A DNA stretch of 64,000 nucleotides from Candidatus Nealsonbacteria bacterium (GCA_026016225.1 CP061210.1:130000-193999); one strand, 5' to 3'; positions 17,556 through 42,657 are shown, numbered from the stretch's first letter. Translations and numbers: made by a program. The notes: generated by a model from the sequence alone, not told the origin.

Positions 17556-17627
17556 AGCGGGCGAAGGGAATCGAACCCTCATCATGGCCTTGGAAGGGCC
17601 AGATAATAGCCGTTATACGACGCCCGC
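17556..17627 (-). tRNA. tRNA-Gly (anticodon UCC)
   Basis: The reverse complement folds as a cloverleaf. Acceptor is GCGGGCG/CGCCCGC, anticodon stem TGGCC/GGCCA with loop CTTCCAA, and T-arm GAGGG-TTCGATT-CCCTT. No encoded CCA. Confidence 0.85.
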
Positions 17628-17668
17628 AAATTCAGCGAAGGTGAATAGTTTTGCAAAGCAAAACTTAA

Positions 17669-17739
17669 TCGGGGCACCCAGATTTGAACTGGGATTAAAG
17701 CCTCCCAAAGGCCTCGTGCTACCATTACACCATGCCCCG
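17669..17739 (-). tRNA. tRNA-Pro (anticodon UGG)
   Basis: Reverse complement: acceptor CGGGGCA/TGCCCCG, anticodon stem AGGCC/GGCTT with loop TTTGGGA, and T-arm CCCAG-TTCAAAT-CTGGG. Confidence 0.85.
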
Positions 17740-17911
17740 ATAAAAATTCTAATTCAATTCCGAATTTTATCACTTTGTTCTTCTTGCGTCAATGAAAGGA
17801 AAAACAGCTAATTGCCTTTATAAATTATCTTTGTTTTCTTTACACTTTATTTTTGGCTGGTTTAATGTTATATTGGGCAGAGGGCGGTAAACGTAATACA
17901 GGTGAAAGTAT

Positions 17912-17985
17912 GCCCTCGTAGCTTAATTGGAAAAAGCAGGACCCTTCTAAGGTCAAGAGTGCAGGTTCGATTCCTGCCGAGGGCA
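17912..17985 (+). tRNA. tRNA-Arg (anticodon UCU)
   Basis: Acceptor GCCCTCG/CGAGGGC, D-arm GCTT-AATTGGAAA-AAGC, anticodon loop CTTCTAA, and T-arm GCAGG-TTCGATT-CCTGC. Confidence 0.85.
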
Positions 17986-18041
17986 CACAAAATGAAAATA
18001 AATTAATAGATGCAAGAAAGATATCTGCTTTTACAAAAACT

Positions 18042-23495: not shown

Positions 23496-23540
23496 GTCAA
23501 AGTTTAAAACCTTTGACTTTTTGTTTTTGGAATAAAAAAA
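23496..23540. repeat. terminator-like hairpin module, inverted copy of 29943-29988
   Basis: GTCAAAG-8 nt-CTTTGAC followed by TTTTTGTTTTT. Its reverse complement aligns with 29943-29988 over about 45 nt with few mismatches. Confidence 0.75.
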
Positions 23541-23586
23541 GATGTGTTTCTTGTACCTCTTTGATTGAAAAAATAAAGGACAATAA

Positions 23587-24327
23587 TTATTTCTCGGCTG
23601 TCACTTCTTTTGTTTCTTCGATTCTCTCTTCTACTTTTATTCCACAGAAAGGACAAAACGAGACTATTGATGTTAATTGTACTCCACAAGAGGGACAATA
23701 GAATTCACTTGCCTTTTCCTTAACTTGTGCAACCTTCGCGAGCTTCTCTCTTAATTTCTCAATTGTTTTTTTAGCTTTCTCTTCTACCTCTCTTTTAGCT
23801 TGTTCAATTTTTACTAGTTTCTTTTTTAACTCCCTAATTGTTTTTTTTGTTTTTCTTTCCGCTTTTTCCTCAGACTTCTTTTTAGATTTCTTTTCATGCA
23901 TTTCTTTAGGTTTTTCCTTCACTTCAGGCTCATTTTCATCTTTGATATTTCTTTGGACTACAGTGACTTTAATACTTTTCTGTTTAAGACTTAAGTGAGT
24001 AGGATATCTTTTAAGTGTATCTACAAAAAGAGCTTTCTTAGTTATTTTCCTTCTTTTGCCATCAAACGAAGTTTTCATAACCGTATCCAATACTGCACTT
24101 CCTTCCTTTAAATCTACCCACACATGGCTATTACATCTTTCACAGAATAATGGCAGAAATTTACTGTTGTAGTGGTAGTATCCCTTATAATCTTTAATTT
24201 CTGCTTCAGTAATTTCTTTAACTTCTATTTTACCCTGACACTCTTTATGGTATATAATATCTCCAACATTAACTTCTTTACCCTCAATTGTTTCTTCAAC
24301 CGCAATAGTAAAAGTTCTTTTTGTCAT
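23587..24327 (-). CDS. hypothetical protein with Lys/Glu-rich coiled coil and C-terminal zinc ribbon
   Basis: 246 aa. It has a C-terminal YCPSCG...FCPFCG ribbon and an internal CERC. A strong promoter/RBS module lies upstream. Confidence 0.6.
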   Translation of the reverse strand: MTKRTFTIAVEETIEGKEVNVGDIIYHKECQGKIEVKEITEAEIKDYKGYYHYNSKFLPLFCERCNSHVWVDLKEGSAVLDTVMKTSFDGKRRKITKKALFVDTLKRYPTHLSLKQKSIKVTVVQRNIKDENEPEVKEKPKEMHEKKSKKKSEEKAERKTKKTIRELKKKLVKIEQAKREVEEKAKKTIEKLREKLAKVAQVKEKASEFYCPSCGVQLTSIVSFCPFCGIKVEERIEETKEVTAEK

Positions 24328-24412
24328 TTTACATCACCTTTTAATTCTGATTTTATTTAATTATAAATTTACCATTTTTATCTTACCTCATCTTTCAATT
24401 TTTGTCAAATGG
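24328..24412 (-). promoter_or_regulatory. promoter/RBS module (TTGACA-17-TAAGAT, downstream TATAAT, AAAGGTGAT RBS); inverted copy of 29645-29725
   Basis: The reverse complement reads TTTGACAAAAATTGAAAGATGAGGTAAGAT...TATAATTAAA...AATTAAAAGGTGATGTAAAATG. It aligns block by block with the region upstream of 29726. Confidence 0.7.
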
Positions 24413-24450
24413 TTTTGTTTTGGGAATTGGAAAATTCTGCTATATTAAAG

Positions 24451-24553
24451 CAATATGCCCTCTAAAGTCTTCTCAATAGCCATTGTGGGCTTGTCAACTC
24501 AAATCATTGAAATAAAAATAAATGCCTCATACGGATTGAGGCATTTTGAAATT
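24451..24553 (+). repeat. 103-bp direct repeat, copy A (comM 5' end)
   Basis: It aligns without gaps to 27964-28066 with 6 mismatches by my count. Confidence 0.9.
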
Positions 24554-24583
24554 AAGGGGTTTCTCTCGGATTTTTGTTTTTAA
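24455..24583 (+). pseudogene. orphan 5' fragment of comM/yifB (first 33 codons, then divergent tail and stop)
   Basis: It encodes MPSKVFSIAIVGLSTQIIEIKINASYGLRHFEI. The intact gene at 27968 begins MPSKVFSTAIVGLSAQIIEIETDASYGLRHFEI. Similarity ends at 24553 and a stop follows at 24581. Confidence 0.8.
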
Positions 24584-24638
24584 GTTATTTTTGATAAAAT
24601 AGTAATAAGAGGGAGGTTATAAAGAAATTCAAAAAAAT

Positions 24639-25031
24639 ATGAAAATTAATCCCAAAAAAGAAAGAAAAGAACTACCACCAGAAAAGGTTAAAGAAACACC
24701 TGAAAAATTGTATATAGAAAGAGAAACAAAAATAGAAAAAGAAAAACCTTTAACCGAAGAAGAAAGAAGAAGAATTAAAGAAAAGTATGAAGAGGAATTT
24801 AGAAAAATGAAGCTGAGTCCTGATATGGAAGAAGAAGCAAAAGAGGAAGCAAAACAGATTAAAACGCTTGAAAAAGAAGGAAAAATTAATCGATTATTAA
24901 ATATTGCTAAAGAGAAAGGAGTATATTTTGCAGTAAAAGTAGCAGAAAATATGAACGACCCTTATACCTTAGACATCCTTCATGATATTTTGGCTAAAGA
25001 TGCATTTTATAAAAGGTTTTTAAAACAATAA
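24639..25031 (+). CDS. hypothetical Lys/Glu-rich protein
   Basis: 130-aa ORF immediately upstream of, and co-oriented with, the coupling-protein gene. No recognisable motif. Confidence 0.45.
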   Translation: MKINPKKERKELPPEKVKETPEKLYIERETKIEKEKPLTEEERRRIKEKYEEEFRKMKLSPDMEEEAKEEAKQIKTLEKEGKINRLLNIAKEKGVYFAVKVAENMNDPYTLDILHDILAKDAFYKRFLKQ

Positions 25032-25034
25032 ATT

Positions 25035-27488
25035 ATGGAGATTTTATATTGGATAGTTCTCATTTTGATTTCAGTAATAGGGGGAGTGCTGATTTTTCTC
25101 TTTTTAAAGAAAAAAGAAAAGGGACAAGTTTTAGGGAGCTTAGATATGTCCCTTTTTTTAGTGAGTATGCCAAAGCACAGATTAAAAAAAGAAGAAATGA
25201 CAGGAAAAGAAGAAAAAACCTTAATTGGCCAGATGGAACAGGTTTTAAGTAGTTTTCTTTATCTAAAAAAGCCAGGCTTTTTTGAAAGAATTATTTTTGG
25301 TTCTCCGAGGGTAGTCCTTGAGATTGCTTCTCAGATCGGTGGAACCGATATTTCTTTTTATGTAGCTGTACCTAAATTTTTGGAAACTGCTCTTGAAAAG
25401 TATATCCAGGGGGTTTATCCTCGAGCTTTGGTAGAAAAAATTCCCCAAGATTACACTATTTTTGAACCGGGTGGTTTTACTGCAGGCTGTTATTTAAAAT
25501 TAAAAGAACCTCTTCTTTTTCCAATTAATACATACAAAAACTTAGAAAAAGACCCTTTAGCTACTATAACCAATACCTTAAGTAAAATTGCCCCAGATGA
25601 AGGAGCAGCAGTTCAAATAATTATTAAACCCTCACCATTGAATTTAAAAAAAATAGGCGACAAAGCTTTAGCGAAAATCAGAGAAGGCAAAACCGTGAAA
25701 AATGCGATTTCTGAAGCATGTAGGTCTCCTGCTCTTAGTTTTTTAATAGAGCTATTTAAGGTTTTTTCAGCCCAACCTGGCAAAAAGCCAGATGAAAGAA
25801 GAATGGAAGAATTCAGGAGGACCGGCTCTAAGATTGATGAAAGCACTATTCAATCTATTCAAACTAAAATCCAAAAACCAATTTTCGAAACCAATATTAG
25901 ATTGCTAACTTCAGCTCCAACTTTAGAAAGAGCAAAAGAAATCTTGAGCCATCTTCAAGGAGCTTTCAGTCAATTTTCACTTTTTGTTTCCAATAGTTTC
26001 TATATGGTTGAATTGAAGAAAAAACGCCTTAAAAAACTTGTTTATGATTTTAGTTTTAGAAACTTTAACCCAAATCAAAGGGTTATTTTAAACATTGAAG
26101 AACTAACCAGTATTTACCATTTTCCCACTTATTATACTGAAACTCCTTATATTAAAGCTGCCAAAAGCGGGGTAGCAGCTCCTCCTGCTGAACTTCCAGA
26201 AAAGGGATTAAATTTAATTGGCAAAGTTCTTTTCCGGGGAGAAGAAAAAAGAGTTTCTTTTGCTACCAGAGAAGACAGAAGAAGGCATTTTTACATTATA
26301 GGTCAAACCGGAACCGGAAAAAGCAGCTTATTGCGAGAAATGATCCGCCAGGATATTCAAAATGGCGAAGGAGTAGCAGTTATAGATCCCCACGGCGATT
26401 TAATTGAGGACACCTTGGCTAATATCCCAAAAGAAAGAATAAAAGATGTAGTTTTATTCGAACCTTTTGATATCAGCCGACCTATAGGCTTAAACATGCT
26501 TGAATATGAAAGCCCCAGCCAAAAAGATTTTGCCGTCCAGGAAATGATAGCTATTTTCCATAAACTTTTCCCGCCAGAGATTATAGGTCCAATGTTTGAG
26601 CATTATATGAGAAATGCTATGTTAGCCATAATGGCAAACAAAGAAGACCCAGGTACTTTGGTTGAAATCCCCAGAATGTTTACTGATGAAGAGTTTATGT
26701 CTCATAAACTGAAAAGTGTTACAGACCCTATAGTTAAAAGCTTCTGGCTAAAAGAGTGGAAACAAACAACAGGTGCTACCAGGTCTGATATGTTAGGATA
26801 TGTTGTTTCCAAAATTGGTCGTTTTATTGGAAATGAAATGATGAGAAATATTATTGGTCAACCTCATTGTGGTTTTGATTCAGGAAAAATAATGGAGGAA
26901 GGTAAGATTTTCTTAGCCAATCTTTCCAAAGGATTAACAGGCGAAGTAAATTCTTCTTTGTTGGGCTTAATTTTGGTTTCAAAAATGCAAATGGCAGCAA
27001 TGAGAAGAGCCAAGGTTCCAGAAGAAAAAAGAAAAGATTTTTATTTATACATTGATGAGTTTCAAAATTTCACCACCAACAGTATCGCCACAATTCTTTC
27101 TGAAGCCAGAAAATACCGCTTAAATTTGATTTTAGCTCACCAATATATTCCTCAACTTGTTCCTGAAATCAGAAATGCTGTTTTGGGTAATGTGGGAACA
27201 ATTGGAGCCTTCAGAATTGGAGCCGACGATGCTGAATTTTTGGAAAAACAATTTGAGCCAGAATTCTCTCGGTTTGATTTGGTTAATCTTGACAATTTCA
27301 ATTTAGTGGTAAAGATGATGATTAAAAATAATATCTCAGAAGCTTTTAGAATTCAAACATTTCCTCCTAAAAAAGGAAATCTAAAAATTATTGAATTAAT
27401 CAAAAAAATCTCAAAACAAAAATACGGCCGGCCAAAAGCGTTGGTTGAGACTGAAATCTTAAAAAGGTCAAGGTTAATCAGTCTTTAA
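25035..27488 (+). CDS. VirD4/TraD-like type IV coupling protein (membrane-anchored P-loop ATPase)
   Basis: N-terminal TM helix, Walker A GQTGTGKSS, Walker B LYIDEFQNF, and EARKYRLNLILAHQYIPQL, which is typical of T4CP/TraD-like ATPases. Confidence 0.75.
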   Translation: MEILYWIVLILISVIGGVLIFLFLKKKEKGQVLGSLDMSLFLVSMPKHRLKKEEMTGKEEKTLIGQMEQVLSSFLYLKKPGFFERIIFGSPRVVLEIASQIGGTDISFYVAVPKFLETALEKYIQGVYPRALVEKIPQDYTIFEPGGFTAGCYLKLKEPLLFPINTYKNLEKDPLATITNTLSKIAPDEGAAVQIIIKPSPLNLKKIGDKALAKIREGKTVKNAISEACRSPALSFLIELFKVFSAQPGKKPDERRMEEFRRTGSKIDESTIQSIQTKIQKPIFETNIRLLTSAPTLERAKEILSHLQGAFSQFSLFVSNSFYMVELKKKRLKKLVYDFSFRNFNPNQRVILNIEELTSIYHFPTYYTETPYIKAAKSGVAAPPAELPEKGLNLIGKVLFRGEEKRVSFATREDRRRHFYIIGQTGTGKSSLLREMIRQDIQNGEGVAVIDPHGDLIEDTLANIPKERIKDVVLFEPFDISRPIGLNMLEYESPSQKDFAVQEMIAIFHKLFPPEIIGPMFEHYMRNAMLAIMANKEDPGTLVEIPRMFTDEEFMSHKLKSVTDPIVKSFWLKEWKQTTGATRSDMLGYVVSKIGRFIGNEMMRNIIGQPHCGFDSGKIMEEGKIFLANLSKGLTGEVNSSLLGLILVSKMQMAAMRRAKVPEEKRKDFYLYIDEFQNFTTNSIATILSEARKYRLNLILAHQYIPQLVPEIRNAVLGNVGTIGAFRIGADDAEFLEKQFEPEFSRFDLVNLDNFNLVVKMMIKNNISEAFRIQTFPPKKGNLKIIELIKKISKQKYGRPKALVETEILKRSRLISL

Positions 27489-27539
27489 TTAAAATCTGCC
27501 TGAAAAAGGGGAAAACAGATATTTCCTTAAATCATCCGC

Positions 27540-27569
27540 TTGACAATGGTTTTATTCAAAAGCTAAAAT
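27540..27569 (+). promoter_or_regulatory. putative sigma70-type promoter (TTGACA-18-TAAAAT)
   Basis: TTGACA at 27540-27545 and TAAAAT at 27564-27569, 24 nt upstream of the ATG at 27593. Confidence 0.5.
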
Positions 27570-27592
27570 AAGACAGATAAAGAGAATAAATT

Positions 27593-27862
27593 ATGCCGAA
27601 GAAAAAAAGCAAACAATCGACCTCTTTGAAAGAAATAGAAAAGTTGCTATCTCAACAGACTGTTGTTATTCTTTCGGCTGTAGATGAAAGATTAAAGAAA
27701 ACAGAACTTCGAATTAATAAAAAGATTGATAAACTCACAACAACCCTTGATAGATTCTTAAAAGGACTAAAAGATATTGAAGACGAATTTCAGGCAATGA
27801 AACTCGATATTAATCGAATGAAAAAAGTAATTAAAGAAAAACTTGACGTAGATTTGTTTTAG
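27593..27862 (+). CDS. hypothetical coiled-coil protein
   Basis: 89-aa ORF with its own promoter-like and terminator-like signals. Confidence 0.5.
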   Translation: MPKKKSKQSTSLKEIEKLLSQQTVVILSAVDERLKKTELRINKKIDKLTTTLDRFLKGLKDIEDEFQAMKLDINRMKKVIKEKLDVDLF

Positions 27863-27907
27863 AATTAACCTTTTTCAGGTTACATTTTCACTGTAAATCT
27901 TAAGACT

Positions 27908-27926
27908 GCCCGGAAACGGGCTTTTT
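27908..27926 (+). terminator. intrinsic terminator
   Basis: GCCCG-GAAA-CGGGC followed by TTTTT. Confidence 0.7.
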
Positions 27927-27963
27927 ATTCTGGATTATGCTTTAAGATTTTGTTAAACTTAAA

Positions 27964-28066
27964 CAATATGCCCTCCAAAGTCTTCTCAACAGCCATTGTG
28001 GGCTTGTCAGCTCAAATCATTGAAATAGAAACAGATGCCTCATACGGATTGAGGCATTTTGAAATT
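27964..28066 (+). repeat. 103-bp direct repeat, copy B (5' end of intact comM)
   Basis: Partner of 24451-24553. Confidence 0.9.
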
Positions 28067-29488
28067 GTGGGACTCCCTGACAAAGCAGTGCAGGAATCAA
28101 GGGAGAGAGTAGGGGCTGCGATTGAAAGCTCAGGATTTAAATCTCCTCATCGTCAGCCTGTCAGGGTTCTGGTCTCTTTAGCACCGGCTGACCTTAAAAA
28201 ACAAGGTTCATTGTACGATTTGCCAATCGCCTTAGGTTATCTTTTAGCTGACAAAAAAATTAATTTTAATCCCGGAGGAAAAATAATCTTGGGTGAATTA
28301 GCTTTAGACGGCAGATTAAGACCCGTAAAAGGTGTGATATCTTTTGCTATAGCTTGCAAAGAAAAAGGTTTTTCTGAACTAATCTTGCCAAAGGAAAATG
28401 CTAACGAAGCGAGCTTAATAAAAGGGGTAAAAGTAATTGGCATAGAAAATTTAAGAGAAACTGTTGATTATTTAGAAGGAAAAAAGGAAATTAAACCTCG
28501 AGAAATAGAAATTAAGGATTTTCTCCAACATCCTGAGTATTCAATTGATTTAGGATATATTAAAGGACAAGAGTTAAGTAAAAGAGCCCTGGAAATTGTA
28601 GCTGCCGGCGGCCATAATCTTTTAATGATAGGACCGCCCGGGGCTGGAAAAACTCTTTTAGCAAAAGCTATTCCTTCAATCCTGCCTCCTCTTTCTTTTA
28701 AAGAATCATTAGAAGTAACAAAGATTTACAGTGTAGCTGGATTATTAGCTAAAAACAAACCTTTGATTTCGCAGAGACAATTCCGCTCACCGCATCACAG
28801 TTCCTCTGAAACAGCTTTAATTGGCGGTGGAATCCCTCCGAGACCTGGCGAAATAACTTTGGCTCATCGGGGAGTTTTATTTTTAGACGAATTTCCAGAA
28901 TTCCATCGCGATGTTTTAGAATCTTTGCGTCAACCAATCGAAGAAGGTAAAATAACAATTTCAAGAGCAAGATATTCCCTGACCCTGCCTGCGCGTTTCA
29001 CCTTAGTGACTGCCTCAAACCCTTGTCCCTGCGGTTATTACAAAGACCCTGAAAGAAACTGTACCTGCACTAATTCTCAAATCCAAAAATACAAAAGAAA
29101 ACTTTCAGGTCCCTTAATGGATAGAGTTGACCTTTTTATAACTGTTCCTCAATTAAAATATGATAAATTAACGGCAGCCGATGAGGAAAATTCAAGTCTA
29201 AAAATAAGAGAAAGGGTTGCCAAAACTCGTCAAATCCAACGAGAAAGATTTAAAGCAGAAAAAACCAACTCAGAAATAAAGATTCCCCAGATAAAAAAAT
29301 ACTGCCAGGTTGATCTTGCGAGTCAAAGTCTTTTAAGAAAATATGTTGATTCTGGAAAATTATCAGCCAGGGGTTATCATCGGGTTTTAAGGGTAGCACG
29401 CACTATTGCTGATTTGGAAAACTCAGAAAAAATCAGCTATCCGCACATTTCAGAAGCCCTAATGTATAGAATAAGAGAAGATGTTTAA
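27968..29488 (+). CDS. comM: YifB/ComM-family Mg-chelatase-like AAA+ ATPase
   Basis: Lon-like N-domain (LAPADLKKQGSLYDLPIALG), Walker A GPPGAGKT, Walker B FLDEFPEF, and the C-terminal ARGYHRVLRVARTIADL block. The ATG at 27968 is preferred over the TTG at 27950. Confidence 0.9.
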   Translation: MPSKVFSTAIVGLSAQIIEIETDASYGLRHFEIVGLPDKAVQESRERVGAAIESSGFKSPHRQPVRVLVSLAPADLKKQGSLYDLPIALGYLLADKKINFNPGGKIILGELALDGRLRPVKGVISFAIACKEKGFSELILPKENANEASLIKGVKVIGIENLRETVDYLEGKKEIKPREIEIKDFLQHPEYSIDLGYIKGQELSKRALEIVAAGGHNLLMIGPPGAGKTLLAKAIPSILPPLSFKESLEVTKIYSVAGLLAKNKPLISQRQFRSPHHSSSETALIGGGIPPRPGEITLAHRGVLFLDEFPEFHRDVLESLRQPIEEGKITISRARYSLTLPARFTLVTASNPCPCGYYKDPERNCTCTNSQIQKYKRKLSGPLMDRVDLFITVPQLKYDKLTAADEENSSLKIRERVAKTRQIQRERFKAEKTNSEIKIPQIKKYCQVDLASQSLLRKYVDSGKLSARGYHRVLRVARTIADLENSEKISYPHISEALMYRIREDV

Positions 29489-29512
29489 GATTTAGTTGAA
29501 AAAAGAAGCTTG

Positions 29513-29537
29513 AAAAAAGGAGCTTAGCTCCTTTTTT
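29513..29537 (+). terminator. intrinsic terminator after comM
   Basis: 11-bp stem AAAAAAGGAGC / GCTCCTTTTTT around a TTA loop. Confidence 0.75.
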
Positions 29538-29540
29538 CAC

Positions 29541-29651
29541 TTCCACAACTTCCATAGACCTCATCAGTCTCTAGGTTATATTCCACCTATTAATTTTCAG
29601 ACAAAATACCTAAAAGTGTTACCTATGTACCCTTCTAGTACATCTGTTTGA
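29541..29651 (+). pseudogene. C-terminal remnant of a DDE (rve-type, IS3/IS481-like) transposase
   Basis: It translates to FHNFHRPHQSLGYIPPINFQTKYLKVLPMYPSSTSV*, which matches the conserved YNxxRPHxSLGYxxP tail of rve integrase-core transposases. No upstream coding part remains. Confidence 0.65.
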
Positions 29652-29725
29652 CAAAAACTAAAAGATGAGGTAAAAATAGGTAGATTAAAATTATAATTAA
29701 AAATTACAAATTAAAGGTGATGTTT
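29645..29725 (+). promoter_or_regulatory. promoter/RBS module (TTGACA 29648-29653, TATAAT 29692-29697, AAAGGTGAT RBS); inverted copy of 24328-24412
   Basis: It shares the blocks TTTGACAAAAA.T.AAAGATGAGGTAA, TATAATTAAA and AATTAAAGGTGATGT with the reverse complement of 24328-24412. Confidence 0.7.
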
Positions 29726-29914
29726 ATGGTTTATGGAGAGCAATGGGAATATAAGGTTATAGAATTGGATTGGGAGCCCAAAAAACGAGAAAAGCAATTG
29801 AATCATCTTGGATTTCAAGGATGGGAATTAGCAGCTGTAACAGCATATGAAGCATATAAAGGGTGGTCAGGTACTCCAATGAGATATGCATACCTTAAAC
29901 GAAAGAAAGTTTAA
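29726..29914 (+). CDS. small DUF4177-like protein
   Basis: WEYKVIELD...QLNHLGFQGWELAAV resembles the DUF4177 pattern (YEYKV...LN.lG.eGWELV). The ATG at 29726 sits 5 nt after the GGTGA RBS. Confidence 0.5.
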   Translation: MVYGEQWEYKVIELDWEPKKREKQLNHLGFQGWELAAVTAYEAYKGWSGTPMRYAYLKRKKV

Positions 29915-29927
29915 TCTATTCAACATT

Positions 29928-29951
29928 TGGTGCTTAGCACCATTTTTTTTT
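29928..29951 (+). terminator. intrinsic terminator
   Basis: TGGTGC-TTA-GCACCA followed by nine T. Confidence 0.8.
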
Positions 29952-29988
29952 ATTTCAAAACAAAAAGTCAAAGGTTTTATACTTTGGC
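29943..29988. repeat. terminator-like hairpin module, inverted copy of 23496-23540 (serves the minus-strand M23 gene)
   Basis: GTCAAAG-8 nt-CTTTGGC. On the minus strand it is followed by TTTTTGTTTTG. It aligns to the reverse complement of 23496-23540. Confidence 0.75.
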
Positions 29989-30023
29989 TTTTAAGGTTAA
30001 AATAGAGTTAGAGTGTTTAGGGA

Positions 30024-32685: not shown

Positions 32686-33948
32686 ATGAAGAAATTTATT
32701 AGGAATAAAAAAATTCTCCTTTTATTTGTACTTTTGGGATTTTTTTTCATTGTTTCAAAAACATTTGCTTTAGAAATAGACTGGCCAAAGTCTCCCGTAA
32801 GCGATACTCAATTAAATGATGACAGCGTGCTCGGAGATATGGTTAAGTATTTTTATGAGTGGGGAATTACTATGGGTGGATTAGTAACGTTTTTTTCTTT
32901 ATTAATTGGTGGATTCAAATATTTAACTTCAATAGGAAGTCCAACAGTAATGAAGGAAGCAACTGACCAAATAACCTCAGCTTTTTTAGGTCTCATTTTA
33001 CTTTTATCGTCCTGGTTGATTCTAAACACAATCAGCCCTCAATTTACAACTTTTCAAGCAAATCCTTTTAAGAAAAATCCCTATGGGGGAGAGTGGGGTG
33101 ATTTTTCATTCAAACAACAACCTTCTTGTGATTACGCCATTTTATATGACAATAGTGGAAACGAAATAGAAATTGAGGGAACCACGGAAACTGAATTAAC
33201 TGAAGACTTAGGGATAGTCCATTTAAAATCATCTCCTGTCTCTATTAGAGCCTTCCGCAAAGAAGAAGAGAAAGATAAAGAGTGTGGCCCAGAGGCATGT
33301 TTATGCTATGTAAAATTATATGCAGATGTCGATGAGGGAAGCTGTAATTTTATGGTAGCAGAGCATTTTGCATATCATAATGATCTTCCTAGCTTAATAG
33401 ATCCAGAATACAAACCTATAAAGTGTATACAATTAAAAGCGGGAGGAGCTTGTCGTCCCTGTTATAAGCCCGATGAAAGCGGTAAATGTATTTGGGTTGG
33501 AGACACTAATTGGGGAGAAGGCTTAGCTGAATGTTATGGAGATAACAAACGCTGTTTTGATAAAAAATGTAGAACTTGCGAGGGCTGGTGGGACAATGAC
33601 GGACTGGGTGGAAAGGGCTGCTGGTATAAAGAGAAAGGAGGAGAAGCTGGTCATAGTTGTAATAATGAAATTTGTAAAGACCATGGTGGATGTGTAGATG
33701 CAAATTGGAATGATGATGAGAATTGCACTATCTGCAGGCACTTTTTTGGTTCTGATGCTGGCTGTATTGACGATGCTCATCACCACGCCCCTTTTTGGGG
33801 AAACTCATGGCTCAAATATCCAACTCCCTACTGCTATTATAGGACGGGCGAGCAAGGCAGTTATGACCAGGATTGCGATTCAGGCATTCCAAAGCACTCT
33901 GCATCTTGGGAGAATTGGGAGTGGCGTATATGCGTGTGTGAGTATTAA
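32686..33948 (+). CDS. VirB2/TrbC-like T4SS pilin domain fused to a large cysteine-rich C-terminal domain
   Basis: A signal/TM segment is followed by two hydrophobic helices (GITMGGLVTFFSLLIGGFKYL, AFLGLILLLSSWLILNTI), arranged as in T4SS pilins. The C-terminal roughly 290 aa contain about two dozen Cys plus many Trp, Gly and Asp. Confidence 0.5.
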   Translation: MKKFIRNKKILLLFVLLGFFFIVSKTFALEIDWPKSPVSDTQLNDDSVLGDMVKYFYEWGITMGGLVTFFSLLIGGFKYLTSIGSPTVMKEATDQITSAFLGLILLLSSWLILNTISPQFTTFQANPFKKNPYGGEWGDFSFKQQPSCDYAILYDNSGNEIEIEGTTETELTEDLGIVHLKSSPVSIRAFRKEEEKDKECGPEACLCYVKLYADVDEGSCNFMVAEHFAYHNDLPSLIDPEYKPIKCIQLKAGGACRPCYKPDESGKCIWVGDTNWGEGLAECYGDNKRCFDKKCRTCEGWWDNDGLGGKGCWYKEKGGEAGHSCNNEICKDHGGCVDANWNDDENCTICRHFFGSDAGCIDDAHHHAPFWGNSWLKYPTPYCYYRTGEQGSYDQDCDSGIPKHSASWENWEWRICVCEY

Positions 33949-37770: not shown

Positions 37771-38184
37771 ATGCGTTTTACAATTCCTCAATTTATTGAA
37801 CACGAAGCAAAAATAATAGGTCCCTTAACCTTCAAACAGTTTATTTTTGTGGGCATTGCAGGAGCTATTTGTTTTGTGCTTTATTTTACTGTTTCTTTCA
37901 CTATATTTTTACTCTCCTGTATTGTTTTGGGAGGAATAGCTTTAGCGTTTGCTTTTTTAAAGATAAATAATATGCCTCTTCCCGGTTTTATTGCCAATTT
38001 TCTAAAATATAATCTTTCGCCAAAAATGTACCTTTGGGAGAAAAAAGGGATTAAAGAAAGGGAATTTGAAGAACAAATAATTATAAAAAAAGAAGAAATC
38101 GCGGAAGATGAACTTCCTTTAAAAATTGGAGGAAAGAGTCGTTTAAAAAAGATGAAAACACAAATTGAAACAAGAGGTAAATAA
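37771..38184 (+). CDS. PrgI-like (VirB3-analogous) small membrane protein
   Basis: MRFTIPQFIEHEAKIIGPLTFKQFIFVG followed by two TM helices, the pattern of PrgI-family proteins that precede VirB4 in Gram-positive T4SS. Confidence 0.6.
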   Translation: MRFTIPQFIEHEAKIIGPLTFKQFIFVGIAGAICFVLYFTVSFTIFLLSCIVLGGIALAFAFLKINNMPLPGFIANFLKYNLSPKMYLWEKKGIKEREFEEQIIIKKEEIAEDELPLKIGGKSRLKKMKTQIETRGK

Positions 38185-38228: not shown

Positions 38229-38873
38229 TTGTCTATGCCTAAATCTGCTACCCAACAACTTTTAGAAGTAGATAAAATTAAAGAGGGAGTAGTTGTTTTG
38301 AAAAATAAGGCTTTAAGGGGAATACTAATGGTCTCTTCACTTAATTTTGCTTTAAAATCTGAAGAAGAACAAAAAGCTATTATCTATCAATTCCAGAGTT
38401 TTTTAAACTCTCTTGATTTTTCTTTAGAGATAATTATCCAATCAAGAAAATTAAATATCACCGGCTATCTGGATAAATTAAAAGAGTTGGGAATTAAAGA
38501 AAAAAACGAACTTTTAAAACTACAAATTGGAGAGTATGAAAAATTTATCGAAGAGTTAATTGCGGGCGGAGCAATTATGTCAAAGAATTTTTTTGTGGTT
38601 GTGCCCTTTATCCTTGCCGAACTTCCAAGATTAATAAAAAGCGAAGACGATGCAAAAAAGACAAAAAAAACCCTTACGGAAGAAAGGTTTCAAAGAGCTA
38701 AAATACAGCTCTGGCAAAGAATGGAATTTGTCGCTTTAGGTCTAAGGAGGTGCGGTCTTCAGGGCATACCTTTAAATACTATTGAATTAATTGAGCTTTT
38801 CTGGAGTTTATACCACCCTGAACAAGCAGAGGTCGGATATTATCCAGAAATCCCTCCTGAGTTATCACAATAA
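38229..38873 (+). CDS. hypothetical T4SS-locus protein resembling the non-ATPase N-terminal region of VirB4-type proteins
   Basis: 214 aa. LEVDKIKEGVVVLKNKALRGILMVSSLNFALKSEEEQKAIIYQFQSFLNSL follows the pattern seen at VirB4/TraE N-termini. The stop lies 1 nt before the VirB4-like start. Confidence 0.35.
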   Translation: MSMPKSATQQLLEVDKIKEGVVVLKNKALRGILMVSSLNFALKSEEEQKAIIYQFQSFLNSLDFSLEIIIQSRKLNITGYLDKLKELGIKEKNELLKLQIGEYEKFIEELIAGGAIMSKNFFVVVPFILAELPRLIKSEDDAKKTKKTLTEERFQRAKIQLWQRMEFVALGLRRCGLQGIPLNTIELIELFWSLYHPEQAEVGYYPEIPPELSQ

Positions 38874-38874
38874 G

Positions 38875-41800
38875 ATGAAATTTCCATTTTTTAAAAAAAG
38901 AAAAGAGCTTCCAAAACAAATCTTTGAAGCTACAACAATAGGGATAAAAGATATTATTGCTCCTTCAGCCCTCACCTCATTAAAACCAGACTATTTAAAA
39001 TTGGGTAAAAGATTAGCCAAGTCTTTTTTTATCTTTTCTTATCCAAGATATATAACTACCGGATGGTTTTCTCCCATTGTTAATCTGGACACACCAATGA
39101 ACATTGCTGTTCACATCAATCCTATCGACACTGGAACCATTTTAAAAGAGTTAAGAAAGAAGGTGACAGAGGTTACGGCTGAAATTATGGAAAGACAGGA
39201 AAAGGGGCTTATCAGAGACCCTGCTTTAGAAATTGCATATAGAGACCTTGAAGATTTAAGGGATAAATTACAAACTGCCCAAGAAAGGATGTTTAAACTT
39301 GGCGTTTATTTAACCGTTCTCGGAGATAACACTCAGCAATTAAAAGAGGTGGAAACAACCTTAAGGTCGATGTTGGAGTCAAGATTAATTTATATTAAAC
39401 CTGCTCTTTACCAACAGCTGGAGGGTTTTAATTCTACAGCTCCTTATGGTTTAGACCAACTTCGAGTCTACACCTCAATGAACACCGCTCCCCTTTCATC
39501 AACCTTCCCCTTTGTTTCTTTTGACCTGAGTTCCAGTGAAGGAATTTTATACGGTATTAACAGACACAACAATTCTTTAATTTTATTTGACCGCTTTAGT
39601 CTGGAAAATGCTAATGAAGTTTTATTTGGTAAGGCGGGCTCAGGAAAGTCAATCCTCGGTTCTGAACCAGTTTTAATAAAAAATAAAGATAAAGTTCAAT
39701 TAATAAAAATAGGGCCTTTAGTGAAAAAGTTAATTAAAAAACACGGGATAACTCAAATTGATGAAGAATTAGAAGGAGTAATTAATCCTGAAATTAGAGT
39801 TTATAGTTTTGATAAAAACTTAAAAGGAAAGTGGTCAAAGGTTACGGTAGCCGCCAGAAAAAAAGCGCCAAAAATTTTCTATAAATTCACTACTAAGAGT
39901 GGTAGAAAAATTACTACAACTGGCGATCATAATATGTTGATTCTAAAAAATGGGAAAATAGTGGCCGCTAAAAGCTCTGAAATAAGAGAGGGTGAATTTG
40001 TTCCTTTACCCCGGGAGGTCTCTGAAACTGACTCTCCTTTAAAATCTTTAAATCTTTTAGAATTACTTAGATATTCAAAAGGGATTTATGTAACAGGTGG
40101 AGAACATTTAATTAGAGAAAATTATAAGAAATTAAAGAGGGCTAATTTAGATAAAAGCTTTAATCGCTATCTTTACAATTATAAATCTGGCCGTCGTGTT
40201 CCTCTTCAATATCTCTGGAAAATATTGGATTACCTTAAAATTAAACCTAATAGCCTAAAACTTAAAAACTTAAAAGTTATTTCAAAAAACGGGAAAAAGC
40301 AATATTCTTTAGATGTTAATTTTCAAATCACGTCAGAGTTTTTAAAGCTAGCTGGTTTCATTGCAGCTGAAGGAACAATTGGAGCCGATTTCATAATGAT
40401 TAGTAATAAAGATAGAGAAGTTCTTAGGGAAATAGATTGCTCTCTTTCGAAATTGAAAGTTCCTTTTTATTATGGAAACCGAGGTATAGTCATTGCTTCT
40501 CGAGTATTTATAGAAATAGTAAAAGCTTTAGGGGGGCAAGGAAAATCAAAACAAAAGAAAATTTTACCGGTTATATTTAATTTAAAAAAAGAAAAAATTG
40601 CTAAATATTTATCAGCTTATTTTGAAGGAGATGGAGGAGTAGAAAATAATGTTTATATTTCAGCAGTCTCAAAATCTAAAAGATTAATTTCAGAAATCAG
40701 CTATCTTCTATATTATTTTGGAATTATTGGGAGAATATCAAAGGCAAAAAAGAAAGCTCCTAATTGGAAGTATAAGAAGGTTTACTGGAAGATTACTATT
40801 TCAGGACAAAAAAACCTCCGGAAGTTTGCCGAGAATATTAATTTTATTTCGGAAAGAAAAAGGAAACAACTTTCTGAAACTATTAAAAAAGAGGGGAACA
40901 CCAATGTCGATATCATTCCAAGATTAGAACCCATCTTTAAAGAGATTTACGAGCTCTTCTCTCCTCATCTTTATGGAATAACAGAAATATCTGAATGGAA
41001 AAGAGGGGTTCGTCATCCTTCTCCTCATCATTTACTAAAAGTAATCAATAAAATTGAAGAAAGAATTAAGCATTTTAAAGATTTAGCTTCTACTTTTAGA
41101 ATCTTAAGCGAGCTCCCAGAATTAGTTACAATAGTTAATTTAGGGAAGAATAATAAAAAATTAAATAGGGCTTTATGGCAAGCTTTGGGTCAGAACTGGC
41201 GAGTAGTAAAAAATGAAGGAGTTAAACCCTTTTGCCGTAATGCTTTTAAAATAATTGAAACAGTAAATGATCAATTTTATTCTTTAAAAAATCTTAAAAA
41301 AACAATCCATTTAGGCTTTCAAGAAATGGGTCTTCCTGTGAAATATTACGATCCCTCTTTACAATCAGCTCTAGTGACAAGACCTGAAAGTAATACAAAT
41401 TACGAAACAATTCAAAAAGCCGCTCAGTTTATTTGGCAAAATTATCAAGAGACTTTAGTAAATAAAATTCCTCAGGTTGAGGAAAAATTGGCTCAACTGA
41501 AAATTTTAGCCGATTCTGATCTTTTCTGGGACCCAATTGTTAAAATTAAGAGAATTAAAAACAAAAAAGAGAAATATGTTTATGACTTAACTGTTGATAA
41601 TGAAGTGTTTTTGGCTGGTGCTGAAGGGATGTTTGTTCATAACTCTTACGCTGTTAAAGTAGATATTATAAGGTCTTTAATGTTAGGGGTTGATGTAATG
41701 GTCCTTGACCCCGAAAACGAGTATAAACACTTAGCTGAGGCAGTAGGAGGCTCTTTTTTCAATATTTCTTTAGCTTCACCAAATCATATCAATCCTTTTG

Positions 41801-42657
41801 ATTTACCTACTCCAAGAGAAGATGAAAAACCAGAAGATGTTTTGAGGTCAAATATTATCAATTTAGTAGGACTCTTGAGAATTATGTTGGGAGGGCTTAC
41901 ACCCGAAGAAGATGCAATTATAGACCAGGCTTTAGCTGAAACCTATGCTGCAAAAGATATTACACCTGAAAGCAACCCATCCACCTGGCAGGAAAGGATA
42001 CCCCTAATGAAGGATTTTGAAGCTGTTTTAGAGGGAATGGAAGGAGCTGAGTCACTGGTAAGAAGAGTAAGGAAATTTACCAAAGGAACCTTTTCTCAGT
42101 TTTTCAACCAACCAACAAACATCACTATGGATAAACCTTTTGTTTCTTTTGGAATAAGGGATATGGAAGATGAATTAAGACCGATAGCAATGTTTATCAT
42201 TATGCGCTATATCTGGAATAAAGTCAGGTCAGAACTAAAAAAGAGAGTTTTAGTTGTTGATGAGGCTTGGTGGATAATGCAAAACGAAGATGGAGCTTCT
42301 TTCCTTTATGGAATCTGTAAGAGGGGTAGAAAATATTGGTTAGGGGTAACCACTATATCGCAAGACCTTAATGATTTTATGAAGTCTGCCTACGGACAAC
42401 CAATTATTACCAACTCTTCCTTGCAGATTTTAATGAAACAATCACCAGCCACTATTGATGCTGTAAAAAAAGCTTTTAACTTAACCGAGGAGGAAAAATA
42501 CATCTTATTGGAAGCTGAGGTAGGGGAAGGAATATTTTTTGCAGGACAAAAGCATGTGGCTATGAAAGTGGTAGCTTCTTACACCGAAGACCAAATAGTT
42601 ACCACCAGCCCTGAAGAGGTTTTAAGGATAAAAAAAGCTAAAGAAGGAACTCTTTAG
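38875..42657 (+). CDS. VirB4-like T4SS ATPase interrupted by an intein
   Basis: Walker A FGKAGSGK|S is split by the insert, Walker B is VLVVDEAWWIM, and GVTTISQDLNDF is also present. The ATG at 38875 is preferred over the track start at 38791. Exteins sum to about 595 aa. Confidence 0.85.
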   Translation: MKFPFFKKRKELPKQIFEATTIGIKDIIAPSALTSLKPDYLKLGKRLAKSFFIFSYPRYITTGWFSPIVNLDTPMNIAVHINPIDTGTILKELRKKVTEVTAEIMERQEKGLIRDPALEIAYRDLEDLRDKLQTAQERMFKLGVYLTVLGDNTQQLKEVETTLRSMLESRLIYIKPALYQQLEGFNSTAPYGLDQLRVYTSMNTAPLSSTFPFVSFDLSSSEGILYGINRHNNSLILFDRFSLENANEVLFGKAGSGKSILGSEPVLIKNKDKVQLIKIGPLVKKLIKKHGITQIDEELEGVINPEIRVYSFDKNLKGKWSKVTVAARKKAPKIFYKFTTKSGRKITTTGDHNMLILKNGKIVAAKSSEIREGEFVPLPREVSETDSPLKSLNLLELLRYSKGIYVTGGEHLIRENYKKLKRANLDKSFNRYLYNYKSGRRVPLQYLWKILDYLKIKPNSLKLKNLKVISKNGKKQYSLDVNFQITSEFLKLAGFIAAEGTIGADFIMISNKDREVLREIDCSLSKLKVPFYYGNRGIVIASRVFIEIVKALGGQGKSKQKKILPVIFNLKKEKIAKYLSAYFEGDGGVENNVYISAVSKSKRLISEISYLLYYFGIIGRISKAKKKAPNWKYKKVYWKITISGQKNLRKFAENINFISERKRKQLSETIKKEGNTNVDIIPRLEPIFKEIYELFSPHLYGITEISEWKRGVRHPSPHHLLKVINKIEERIKHFKDLASTFRILSELPELVTIVNLGKNNKKLNRALWQALGQNWRVVKNEGVKPFCRNAFKIIETVNDQFYSLKNLKKTIHLGFQEMGLPVKYYDPSLQSALVTRPESNTNYETIQKAAQFIWQNYQETLVNKIPQVEEKLAQLKILADSDLFWDPIVKIKRIKNKKEKYVYDLTVDNEVFLAGAEGMFVHNSYAVKVDIIRSLMLGVDVMVLDPENEYKHLAEAVGGSFFNISLASPNHINPFDLPTPREDEKPEDVLRSNIINLVGLLRIMLGGLTPEEDAIIDQALAETYAAKDITPESNPSTWQERIPLMKDFEAVLEGMEGAESLVRRVRKFTKGTFSQFFNQPTNITMDKPFVSFGIRDMEDELRPIAMFIIMRYIWNKVRSELKKRVLVVDEAWWIMQNEDGASFLYGICKRGRKYWLGVTTISQDLNDFMKSAYGQPIITNSSLQILMKQSPATIDAVKKAFNLTEEEKYILLEAEVGEGIFFAGQKHVAMKVVASYTEDQIVTTSPEEVLRIKKAKEGTL
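39649..41643 (+). mobile_element. 665-aa intein with LAGLIDADG homing-endonuclease domain, inserted in the VirB4 P-loop
   Basis: It starts SILGSEPVLIK (Ser1, block A-like). Block B is TTTGDHNML. The LAGLIDADG motifs are LKLAGFIAAEGTIG and LSAYFEGDGGVE. The C-terminus is VYDLTVDNEVFLAGAEGMFVHN, followed by +1 Ser (SYAVK). Confidence 0.8.

Follow-up and report, generated by a model that had tools for sequence, protein, structure and literature searches.

A probable scar of site-specific insertion at codon 33 of comM in a Candidatus Nealsonbacteria genome

To our knowledge, very little is known about the temperate phages and integrative elements of the Patescibacteria (Candidate Phyla Radiation, CPR) and about the sites into which they insert, and a search of the papers available to us for serine-recombinase prophages of this phylum found nothing. 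Here, we describe an insertion in a stretch of 64,000 nucleotides (nt) from the genome (G+C ~33%) of a Candidatus Nealsonbacteria bacterium (GCA_026016225.1, CP061210.1:130000-193999); this whole stretch is referred to as the window, and positions are counted from its first letter unless another sequence is named. At 24451-28066, two direct copies of the 5' end of comM enclose about 3.5 kb of DNA with three genes, the largest of which encodes a VirD4-like ATPase of 817 amino acids (aa). In our reading, this is probably a decayed, recombinase-less integration islet, namely the attL/attR-type scar of a site-specific insertion at codon 33 of comM, an attachment site of large serine recombinases (LSRs).

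Among the closest described systems, the staphylococcal cassette chromosome elements (SCC and SCCmec), which depend on the CcrAB LSRs and target orfX/rlmH (see PMC3146451), also hit the end of a conserved, single-copy housekeeping gene and leave the gene intact. As at the comM site, direct repeats of the gene end flank the element, and islands devoid of a recombinase persist and decay. SCC differs in that its target is a 3' end with a repeat of 15-20 nt, whereas here a 5' end is involved, with a coding repeat of ~100 nt plus expression signals; furthermore, the host is here a Patescibacterium and the cargo a core-type ATPase pair. The islands at ssrA in Dehalococcoides (recombinases DsiB and DsiA) are likewise bordered by a duplicated end of the target gene, and some of them have no recombinase module and have been read as cis-mobilisable or fixed (PMC3146451). 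Their module, located on the reverse strand by attL and encoding recombinases of ~540 and ~200 aa, has a counterpart in a relative of the window (L087, 4176-6300), in which a small resolvase of 182 aa lies directly upstream of an LSR, as in CcrA/CcrB and DsiA/DsiB. Unlike the comM site, in which a protein-coding 5' end is hit at two fixed breakpoints, the ssrA islands use the 3' end of tmRNA, show a repeat of 20 bp and accumulate in tandem.

Competence genes are known targets as well. Listeria phage A118 inserts by a serine integrase into the coding sequence of comK (PMC3556126); however, comK is split and excision is needed to restore it, whereas here a new 5' end is supplied and comM would be functional without excision. 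In Acinetobacter baumannii, comM itself is a recurrent and specific target of the AbaR islands, but their Tn7-like transposition inactivates the gene, which has been argued to be a selective strategy (PMC11441513). The islet described here, with comM preserved after what we read as site-specific recombination, represents a counter-example: in Acinetobacter mobile DNA profits from breaking comM, whereas here the inserted DNA preserves it.

The two comM 5' ends, copy A on the left and copy B on the right (Table 1), align without gaps at 97 of 103 positions, as the initial annotation had described. All six mismatches (24463, 24477, 24497, 24515, 24519 and 24521) are transitions; at each of them copy A has A/T and copy B G/C. 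The repeat ends in an exact 32-nt tail (24522-24553 = 28035-28066). A repeat search returns a wider pair, of 128 nt at 88% (24431-24558 vs 27944-28071); in the 40 nt upstream of the ATG, only 21 of 40 positions match, in our estimate no more than two unrelated A+T-rich sequences would, and the true left boundary would therefore lie ~4 nt before the ATG, where the initial annotation had placed it. Copy A opens an open reading frame (ORF) of 42 codons (24455-24583) that leaves the comM frame after codon 33, whereas copy B is continuous with an intact comM. The initial annotation was right about this continuity, and only its figure of 507 aa has to be corrected to 506. The encoded protein scores 584.7 bits with TIGR00368 (cutoff 362.4) and also contains ChlI, Mg_chelatase and Mg_chelatase_C domains. 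Against the closest relative found (L186, GCA_030639995.1), comM shows 34 synonymous and 5 non-synonymous codon differences, a pattern which indicates that the gene is preserved under purifying selection.

Relatives were surveyed by scanning a single genome of each species for ComM and then running tblastn with the window proteins, and the scan found 81 sequences with a comM N-terminus, that is, the window and 80 other loci. The backbone of the relatives consists of genes for an NYN-domain protein, PNPase, (GH3), DksA, comM, a minus-strand M23 peptidase and an rRNA dimethylase; in dozens of them comM starts from a few to ~140 nt after the DksA stop codon, and DksA-comM is evidently the ancestral order. 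Since comM follows directly after DksA in these relatives, copy A, on the DksA side, is the native start and copy B came with the insert. The six differences have the corresponding polarity: at four of them copy B carries the base of at least 93% of 87 relatives and copy A an A/T variant, and the remaining two fall at variable sites. Copy A is thus a stranded native comM start that is decaying by G/C-to-A/T changes. Its load, 4-6 changes per 103 nt, is roughly comparable to the per-lineage synonymous divergence from L186, a rough estimate based on 70 differences in 817 codons and 34 in 506.

Among the 81 sequences, a second comM 5' fragment is present in the window, in L007 and in L009. In L007 (Parcubacteria CG1_02_39_15; ComM 76% identical to that of the window) and in the metagenomic contig L140, DksA is followed by codons 1-33 of comM, a minus-strand LSR of 511 aa, an HTH_17 excisionase-like gene and a complete comM, whose start is overlapped by the HTH_17 gene in L007. 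The LSR of L007 (OIO46639.1 / PIP22341.1) has Resolvase and Recombinase domains and matches the integrase family phrog_95 (E 1e-89). In L087, an LSR 63% identical to that of L007, the small resolvase, an HTH_17 gene, a methyltransferase/Mrr gene and a phage capsid gene belong to an element that abuts comM codons 1-35 and DksA, and which is a prophage in the same comM site. Another LSR is found at the same junction in L102 and L152. LSR genes are therefore present in L007, L087, L102 and L152, and an LSR element or prophage at codon 33 with a leftover 5' fragment occurs in three lineages. These elements and the DksA-comM order bear out two earlier proposals, that the insertion lies inside comM and brought a replacement 5' end, and that comM is a recurrent integration target.

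When the junctions are aligned, all of them contain GGATTGAGGCATTTTGA, after which they part at 0-4 nt from the break in the window. With the break marked by a caret, the window reads GAAATT^AAGGGG (after 24553) and L007 reads GAAAT^GTTTGAAAGG; L140 likewise breaks after GAAAT, L102 and L152 do so after GAAATT, and the break of L087 is at the equivalent AT. In L007, attL is native sequence through GAAAT and attR is element sequence up to AAT^AT, with AT alone in common; as the two comM starts of L007 are just 62% identical, the exchange can be bounded to this AT, the first two positions of codon 33. The repeat in the window ends 1 nt past this presumed crossover. A palindrome with an 8-bp stem, ATGCCTCA-TACGGAT-TGAGGCAT, lies inside the repeat just left of the crossover, is kept at the junctions of L087, L007 and L095, and may belong to the recombinase site. 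Beyond the break, the element arms, AT^TAAGGGGTTTCTC in the window and AT^GTTTGAAAGGTTATTC in L007, share an AAGG-TT-TC-like motif with a spacing difference of 3-4 nt. Directly after the same break, AAGGGGG/GAAAGGGGGG is found in L095 and L136, and GAAAGG/GAAGG in the LSR-bearing elements.

A scan of JGI metagenomes with an exact 22-nt pattern of the junction region gave 96 matches in 93 stretches. Straight reading through as comM was observed for 82 of them; four, plus a fifth at the edge of a contig, share the break position of the window (L140, L102, L152, L095 and L136), and of these L140 is L007-like and L095 and L136 have no recombinase in their visible part. Eight matches represent a second class of break, located ~36 nt downstream of the codon-33 break, at about codon 44, and ending at GAATCR^. 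Together with L145, identified by its junction motif, and L009, this class comprises about ten contigs (L092, L099, L100, L118, L120, L145, L149/L090, L161, L173 and L009). Its break falls at exactly the same nucleotide throughout, and next to it comes a conserved arm of ~40 nt, ACTGTCGTGACAAAAC.TTCAAGGTATTCTTGAA, which contains a 6-bp hairpin. The class-2 inserts measure 0.8-3 kb and encode a HicA toxin, a PIN toxin, SocA/Panacea, CutA1, DUF4177 or a homologue of the 89-aa protein of the window; no recombinase was found in them.

The content of the window insert, with ORFs of 130, 817 and 89 aa and a promoter and terminator for the last, is as the initial annotation gave it. Its right end (27519-28066), including the promoter, has a homologue immediately upstream of comM in L120, an unrelated class-2 insert whose 89-aa homologue is 62% identical, and it is therefore considered a recurrent 'replacement start' module. 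At the left end, the extended -10-like element TGATAAAAT is the putative promoter of the 130-aa gene, whose product matches no Pfam or PHROG family. L186 is devoid of the 30 nt (window 24609-24638, L186 around 9600) that hold the ribosome-binding site of this gene; the ATG stands there 8 nt after the -10-like element, which suggests a leaderless transcript.

As the initial annotation had stated for the insert, no integrase is left in it; in particular, no LSR was detected in the insert or in the whole window, either by tblastn with five recombinases (all E > 0.6) or by a Pfam scan. A tyrosine integrase or a tRNA target was rejected, the nearest tRNA genes being 6.5 kb off (17556-17986) and no integrase having been found. 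Moreover, a search with Rfam found RNA families neither at the junctions nor in the duplicated promoter and terminator elements described below, exact-protein look-ups of ComM and of the neighbouring zinc-ribbon protein gave no match, and IMG/VR had no match to the att pattern, the class-2 junction pattern, the ATPase or the LSR.

In the mechanism that we propose, an LSR, acting either in cis and subsequently lost or in trans, would have made the junction in the window by joining a circle (left arm, through to the 89-aa module and comM codons 1-33) to comM at the AT of codon 33. The imported start, provided with its own expression signals, would keep comM functional; the recombinase would have been lost, or would never have been on the incoming DNA; and the stranded native start would then decay, most of it being deleted in a sister lineage.

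This sister lineage is represented by L186, which is 96-98% identical to the window at the nucleotide level. Its order is DksA, an unrelated 160-aa gene, the same terminator, a remnant of copy A, the 130-aa, 817-aa and 89-aa genes, comM and the M23 peptidase gene. Of copy A, the last 29 nt alone are kept, joined to the same AAGGGGTTTCTC... junction. The segment of the window that is absent from L186 comprises the zinc-ribbon gene with its leader and the initial 74 nt of copy A. Four nt of microhomology (CCTC) mark the borders of this segment, and because it completes copy A in register, a deletion in L186 is the simplest reading. The islet is shared with L186, where copy A is mostly deleted, and it therefore predates the split, was inherited vertically and is fixed. 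This history gives no sign of current mobility of the insert, and no copy of the islet was seen in another genomic context or in viral contigs.

Other relatives show a different content at the same place. In the more distant L183 (PNPase 82% and ATPase 78.5% identical to those of the window), DksA is followed by 143 nt with a terminator, by a pair of genes for 131 and 815 aa, and by genes for 679 and 73 aa. In L095, which is still fairly close (DksA 78.5%, M23 peptidase 81%), a truncated comM fragment with the same break as the window (L095 1270-3500) precedes a strong terminator, a 353-aa regulator-like gene (HTH, HATPase, DUF4325) and a zinc-ribbon gene, and no comM beyond the truncated 5' fragment is present at the locus. 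These arrangements, together with the 88-97% identity between the two comM starts of most two-copy loci, suggest an old and flexible islet, in which the repeats would be kept similar by homologous exchange or gene conversion and the content turns over; the founding events, in our view, were site-specific.

The 817-aa protein has one N-terminal hydrophobic helix (residues 1-27), a Walker A motif GQTGTGKS (423-430) and a Walker B motif YLYIDE (670-675). With the coupling proteins VirD4, TrwB and TraD it shares the N-terminal anchor and the FtsK/HerA-type P-loop domain. It differs from them in that its N-terminal 390 residues correspond to the Patescibacteria-specific DUF8128, its matches to TrwB_AAD_bind, DUF87, TraD, VirD4, HerA and TrwB are essentially confined to residues 390-500, and no relaxase was seen near the gene in the window or in the loci of seven relatives. 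In fact, the match to TrwB (PDB 1e9r, E 5e-6) covers residues 402-461; Pfam TrwB_AAD_bind reaches 40.5 bits (cutoff 20.5) over just 80 of 387 model positions; T4SS-DNA_transf reaches 21.1 bits (cutoff 20.1) and TraG-D_C stays below its cutoff; and the NCBIfam TraD/VirD4 models give 18-40 bits against cutoffs of 250-650. The family of unknown function phrog_5156 matches the protein over its full length (E 6e-80). An AlphaFold2 model built with 20 homologues has a mean pLDDT of 48.8, too poor for fold comparison, and tblastn against GenBank phages returned only Bacillus-phage ATPases of 20-23% identity. Of the VirD4/TraD-like coupling ATPase initially annotated here, the membrane anchor and the P-loop stand, whereas the NCBIfam thresholds are far from reached and the proposed mobility function for an element is not supported.

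More than 6000 homologues of this ATPase were found, the best 120 at 66-79% identity. In L003, L005 and L184, a pair of ~130-aa and ~817-aa genes lies upstream of EF-P among housekeeping genes, and in L002 it is located elsewhere, on the same contig as an intact DksA-comM (L135). In these four relatives the pair is 73-79% identical to the copy in the window, vs 69-82% for PNPase. Comparison with L186 reveals 70 synonymous and 23 non-synonymous codon differences, as expected of a gene under purifying selection. It has been reported that 2,918 Patescibacteria genomes contain 5,713 VirD4-like homologues, of which 148 are near virB4, with relaxases rare, and that these genes, nearly universal in the phylum, are mostly chromosomal, for which the authors suggest exaptation for other functions (PMC12102498). 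On these comparisons, the 817-aa ATPase is best regarded as a conserved chromosomal gene of the patescibacterial core type, usually located beside EF-P and with no mobile-element signature, and 'VirD4-like' annotations in CPR genomes should not be taken as evidence of mobile elements. The pair would have been relocated to the comM islet from its usual place on the EF-P side, and it may have come either with an element, aberrant excision at the EF-P locus being one conceivable route, or through a later rearrangement.

Some further observations concern this gene. Between the window and L186 (10001-12454), 12 of 21 amino-acid differences are clustered in residues 459-506, and the gene has 95.8% nucleotide identity vs 97.4-99.3% for its neighbours, which looks like an imported recombination tract. 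In another Nealsonbacteria genome (L089, CP179889.1, 380629-402221), a prophage with terminase and DnaB-like genes ends in an LSR 39% identical to that of L007 and lies a few kb from the EF-P/PadR/inositol-phosphate synthase block, the place of the pair in L184; the pair was not seen in the L089 stretch. Finally, ATPase paralogues of ~40% identity lie 0.5-2 kb from comM in the distant CPR lineages of L066 (12042-14381, a metagenome-assembled genome (MAG) labelled Saccharibacteria) and L075 (7170-9479, a Levyibacteria MAG), which may point to a functional connection of comM with this family of ATPases.

It is important to weigh the reading as a site-specific scar against other explanations. An artefact of assembly, that is, a contig chimeric or mis-joined at the short repeat, is highly improbable. 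The Logan assembly L001 reproduces 24524-28064 at 100%, and its contig has both ends within the exact 32-nt repeat, where a k=31 graph would be expected to break, which means that alone it cannot join the insert to either flank; however, the six differences between copies A and B imply that both exist in the data, L186, an independent NCBI MAG from a different assembly, has the same junction, gene order and flanks, and the two-copy layout recurs on single contigs in several unrelated metagenomes (L007, L100, L120 and L161). The artefact that the initial annotation had named as its own weak point is therefore not the case. Its positive proposal was a non-autonomous mobilisable element with the ATPase as its own transfer function and a recombinase acting in trans. 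The decayed insert that restores comM with its own 5' end is retained from this proposal; mobilisation by its own coupling protein is, in our judgement, unlikely. The att-like direct repeats at an LSR target, the weak matches of the ATPase to coupling-protein families, a type IV secretion system (T4SS) cluster 5-11 kb downstream and the recombinase-less islands between att repeats that are known elsewhere as cis-mobilisable (PMC3146451) would fit such an element, but the ATPase pair occurs in housekeeping contexts in four relatives and diverges like backbone genes, neither a relaxase nor a recombinase was found in the 64 kb examined, most of attL has been lost in L186, with which the islet is shared by descent, other genomic contexts and viral contigs showed no islet, and homologues in the phylum are mostly chromosomal and thought to be exapted (PMC12102498).

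More weight, although still well short of an even chance, is given to an origin with no site-specific recombinase, in which DNA taken up from a close relative was inserted by homologous (Campbell-type) or homology-facilitated illegitimate recombination through the comM 5' segment, with duplication of that segment, and the islet is a flexible locus whose content changes by recombination between its homologous flanks. The gene comM has itself a role in transformation. Several observations favour such an origin and weigh against the site-specific scar. At six of eight two-copy loci the comM starts are 88-97% identical and lineage-specific, and a clearly foreign copy B is found among the eight only in L007 (62%, LSR-bearing) and L009 (76%); such similar, lineage-specific copies, the similarity of which starts at the ATG, could equally have arisen through gene conversion or through recombination of the Campbell type. 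The inserts lack a recombinase and their small cargo is very varied, the clustered ATPase differences from L186 suggest allelic recombination, and the deletion in L186 used a 4-nt microhomology. Moreover, no LSR remnant is detectable in the insert, the LSR origin of the junction resting on positional coincidence, and the sequence right of the break in the window (AAGGGGTTTCTC...) resembles the LSR right arm loosely and with different spacing. L183, at ~80% protein identity, has the pair right after DksA without a comM fragment, which comes close to the finding that the initial annotation had set against itself, close relatives with the same three genes and no duplicated fragment, with two of the three genes; either the pair is older in the locus than the 6% divergence of copies A and B suggests, with later homogenisation, or it arrived independently in L183. 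Nevertheless, random joins would not repeatedly stop at the same nucleotide: the window lies within 1 nt of the bound given by L007, the other LSR junctions diverge within 0-4 nt of its break, and in a gene of 1.5 kb a break would, by our own arithmetic, fall within 2 nt of a chosen position with a chance of ~0.3%; the class-2 break is nucleotide-exact, too, with its conserved right arm in ~ten contigs. Homologous exchange may well have followed a site-specific founding event, and this alternative is partly complementary to the scar reading. A bolder view, which we hold to be doubtful, is that comM codons 1-33/44 in Nealsonbacteria-like Patescibacteria form a gene-capture platform with two nucleotide-exact entry points, at which a recombinase provided in trans by LSR phages swaps recombinase-less cassettes. 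Each entry point may have its own conserved arm and every cassette may regenerate the comM start, and the cassettes may comprise toxin-antitoxin pairs, DUF4177, the 89-aa gene and here the VirD4-like ATPase pair. If true, bacteria otherwise considered poor in mobile DNA would possess a system resembling integrons or satellites, and it would have placed here a VirD4-like ATPase next to comM and a T4SS cluster.

With the scar reading, codon 33 of comM can be defined as a concrete attachment site in these bacteria, its crossover being bounded to AT; the recombinases of L007, L087 and L102 form the cognate family, and a second entry point lies nearby. Taken together, they could provide genetic tools with a landing pad and a matching integrase, in a phylum very hard to manipulate.

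Table 1. Coordinates of the comM islet and of the features around it in the window.
Feature	Coordinates	Strand	Basis
Copy A, native comM 5' end (4 nt upstream + codons 1-33), attL-like side	24451-24553	+	97/103 to copy B
Palindrome with 8-bp stem inside the repeat, just left of the crossover	24522-24544, also 28035-28057		kept at L087, L007 and L095 junctions
Presumed crossover dinucleotide AT, codon 33 positions 1-2	24551-24552; copy B counterpart 28064-28065		L007 bounds
Left end of insert: AAGGGG motif, T-rich tract, extended -10-like TGATAAAAT ahead of the 130-aa gene	24554-24638	+	sequence reading
130-aa K/E-rich protein, conserved upstream partner of the ATPase	24639-25031	+	paired in L002, L003, L005, L183, L184, L186
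817-aa ATPase gene	25035-27488	+	DUF8128 + DUF87/TrwB-like P-loop domain
Right-end module: promoter, 89-aa coiled-coil gene, terminator, upstream region of replacement comM start	27519-27967	+	L120 homology
Promoter-like site TTGACA-18-TAAAAT of 89-aa ORF	27540-27569	+	sequence
89-aa ORF	27593-27862	+	sequence
Terminator-like site of 89-aa ORF	27908-27921	+	sequence
Copy B, replacement comM 5' end, attR-like side, continuous with the functional gene	27964-28066	+	alignment
Intact comM (YifB/ComM, Mg-chelatase-like AAA+ ATPase, 506 aa)	27968-29488	+	TIGR00368
Segment absent from L186: zinc-ribbon gene, promoter/5' untranslated region (5'UTR), first 74 nt of copy A	23560-24524		blastn
Zinc-ribbon gene	23587-24327	-	in segment absent from L186
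Promoter + 5'UTR of zinc-ribbon gene	24331-24409	-	in segment absent from L186
Second window-specific segment vs L186, with comM terminator	29491-30018		blastn
IS3/IS481-type transposase C-terminal remnant, 37 codons	29538-29651		in second window-specific segment
Second promoter + 5'UTR copy	29647-29723	+	inverted repeat of 24331-24409
DUF4177 gene	29720-29914	+	in second window-specific segment
Second terminator copy	29944-29986		inverted repeat of 23498-23540

Besides the islet, the window contains a second segment that is missing in L186, downstream of comM. Its transposase remnant (HFHNFHRPHQSLGY...; E 0.03-0.06, model positions 349-368 of 369 and 264-282 of 284), likewise absent from L186, has a stop codon that overlaps the -35 box of the DUF4177 promoter. 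The two promoter and 5'UTR copies, ~78 nt long, flank the comM locus in inverted orientation and drive unrelated genes, the zinc-ribbon gene on the minus strand and the DUF4177 gene on the plus strand. Ends of an insertion sequence or composite transposon were considered for these copies and rejected, as the similarity starts exactly at the -35 box and ends at the ribosome-binding site; being limited to this part of two unrelated genes, the copies are therefore interpreted as duplicated promoter-leader modules. The 43-nt terminator hairpins (23498-23540 vs 29944-29986) likewise flank the locus as inverted repeats, at 86% complementarity. The promoter of the ~78-nt module recurs in L095 (2766-2795); there it drives the zinc-ribbon gene from the opposite side of the locus and on the opposite strand, an arrangement that would imply a history of inversion or duplication.

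The T4SS cluster downstream of the islet is of the Patescibacteria type (pilin, PrgI, VirB4-like) and is also present in L007, there without the ATPase. Its pilin-like and PrgI genes (32686-33948, 37771-38184) lie upstream of the gene for the VirB4-like ATPase (38791-42657; P-loop_TraG/AAA_10), which is interrupted by an intein with a LAGLIDADG homing endonuclease domain. The VirD4-like ATPase of the islet is located within ~12 genes of virB4, a proximity that is rare in the phylum (PMC12102498).

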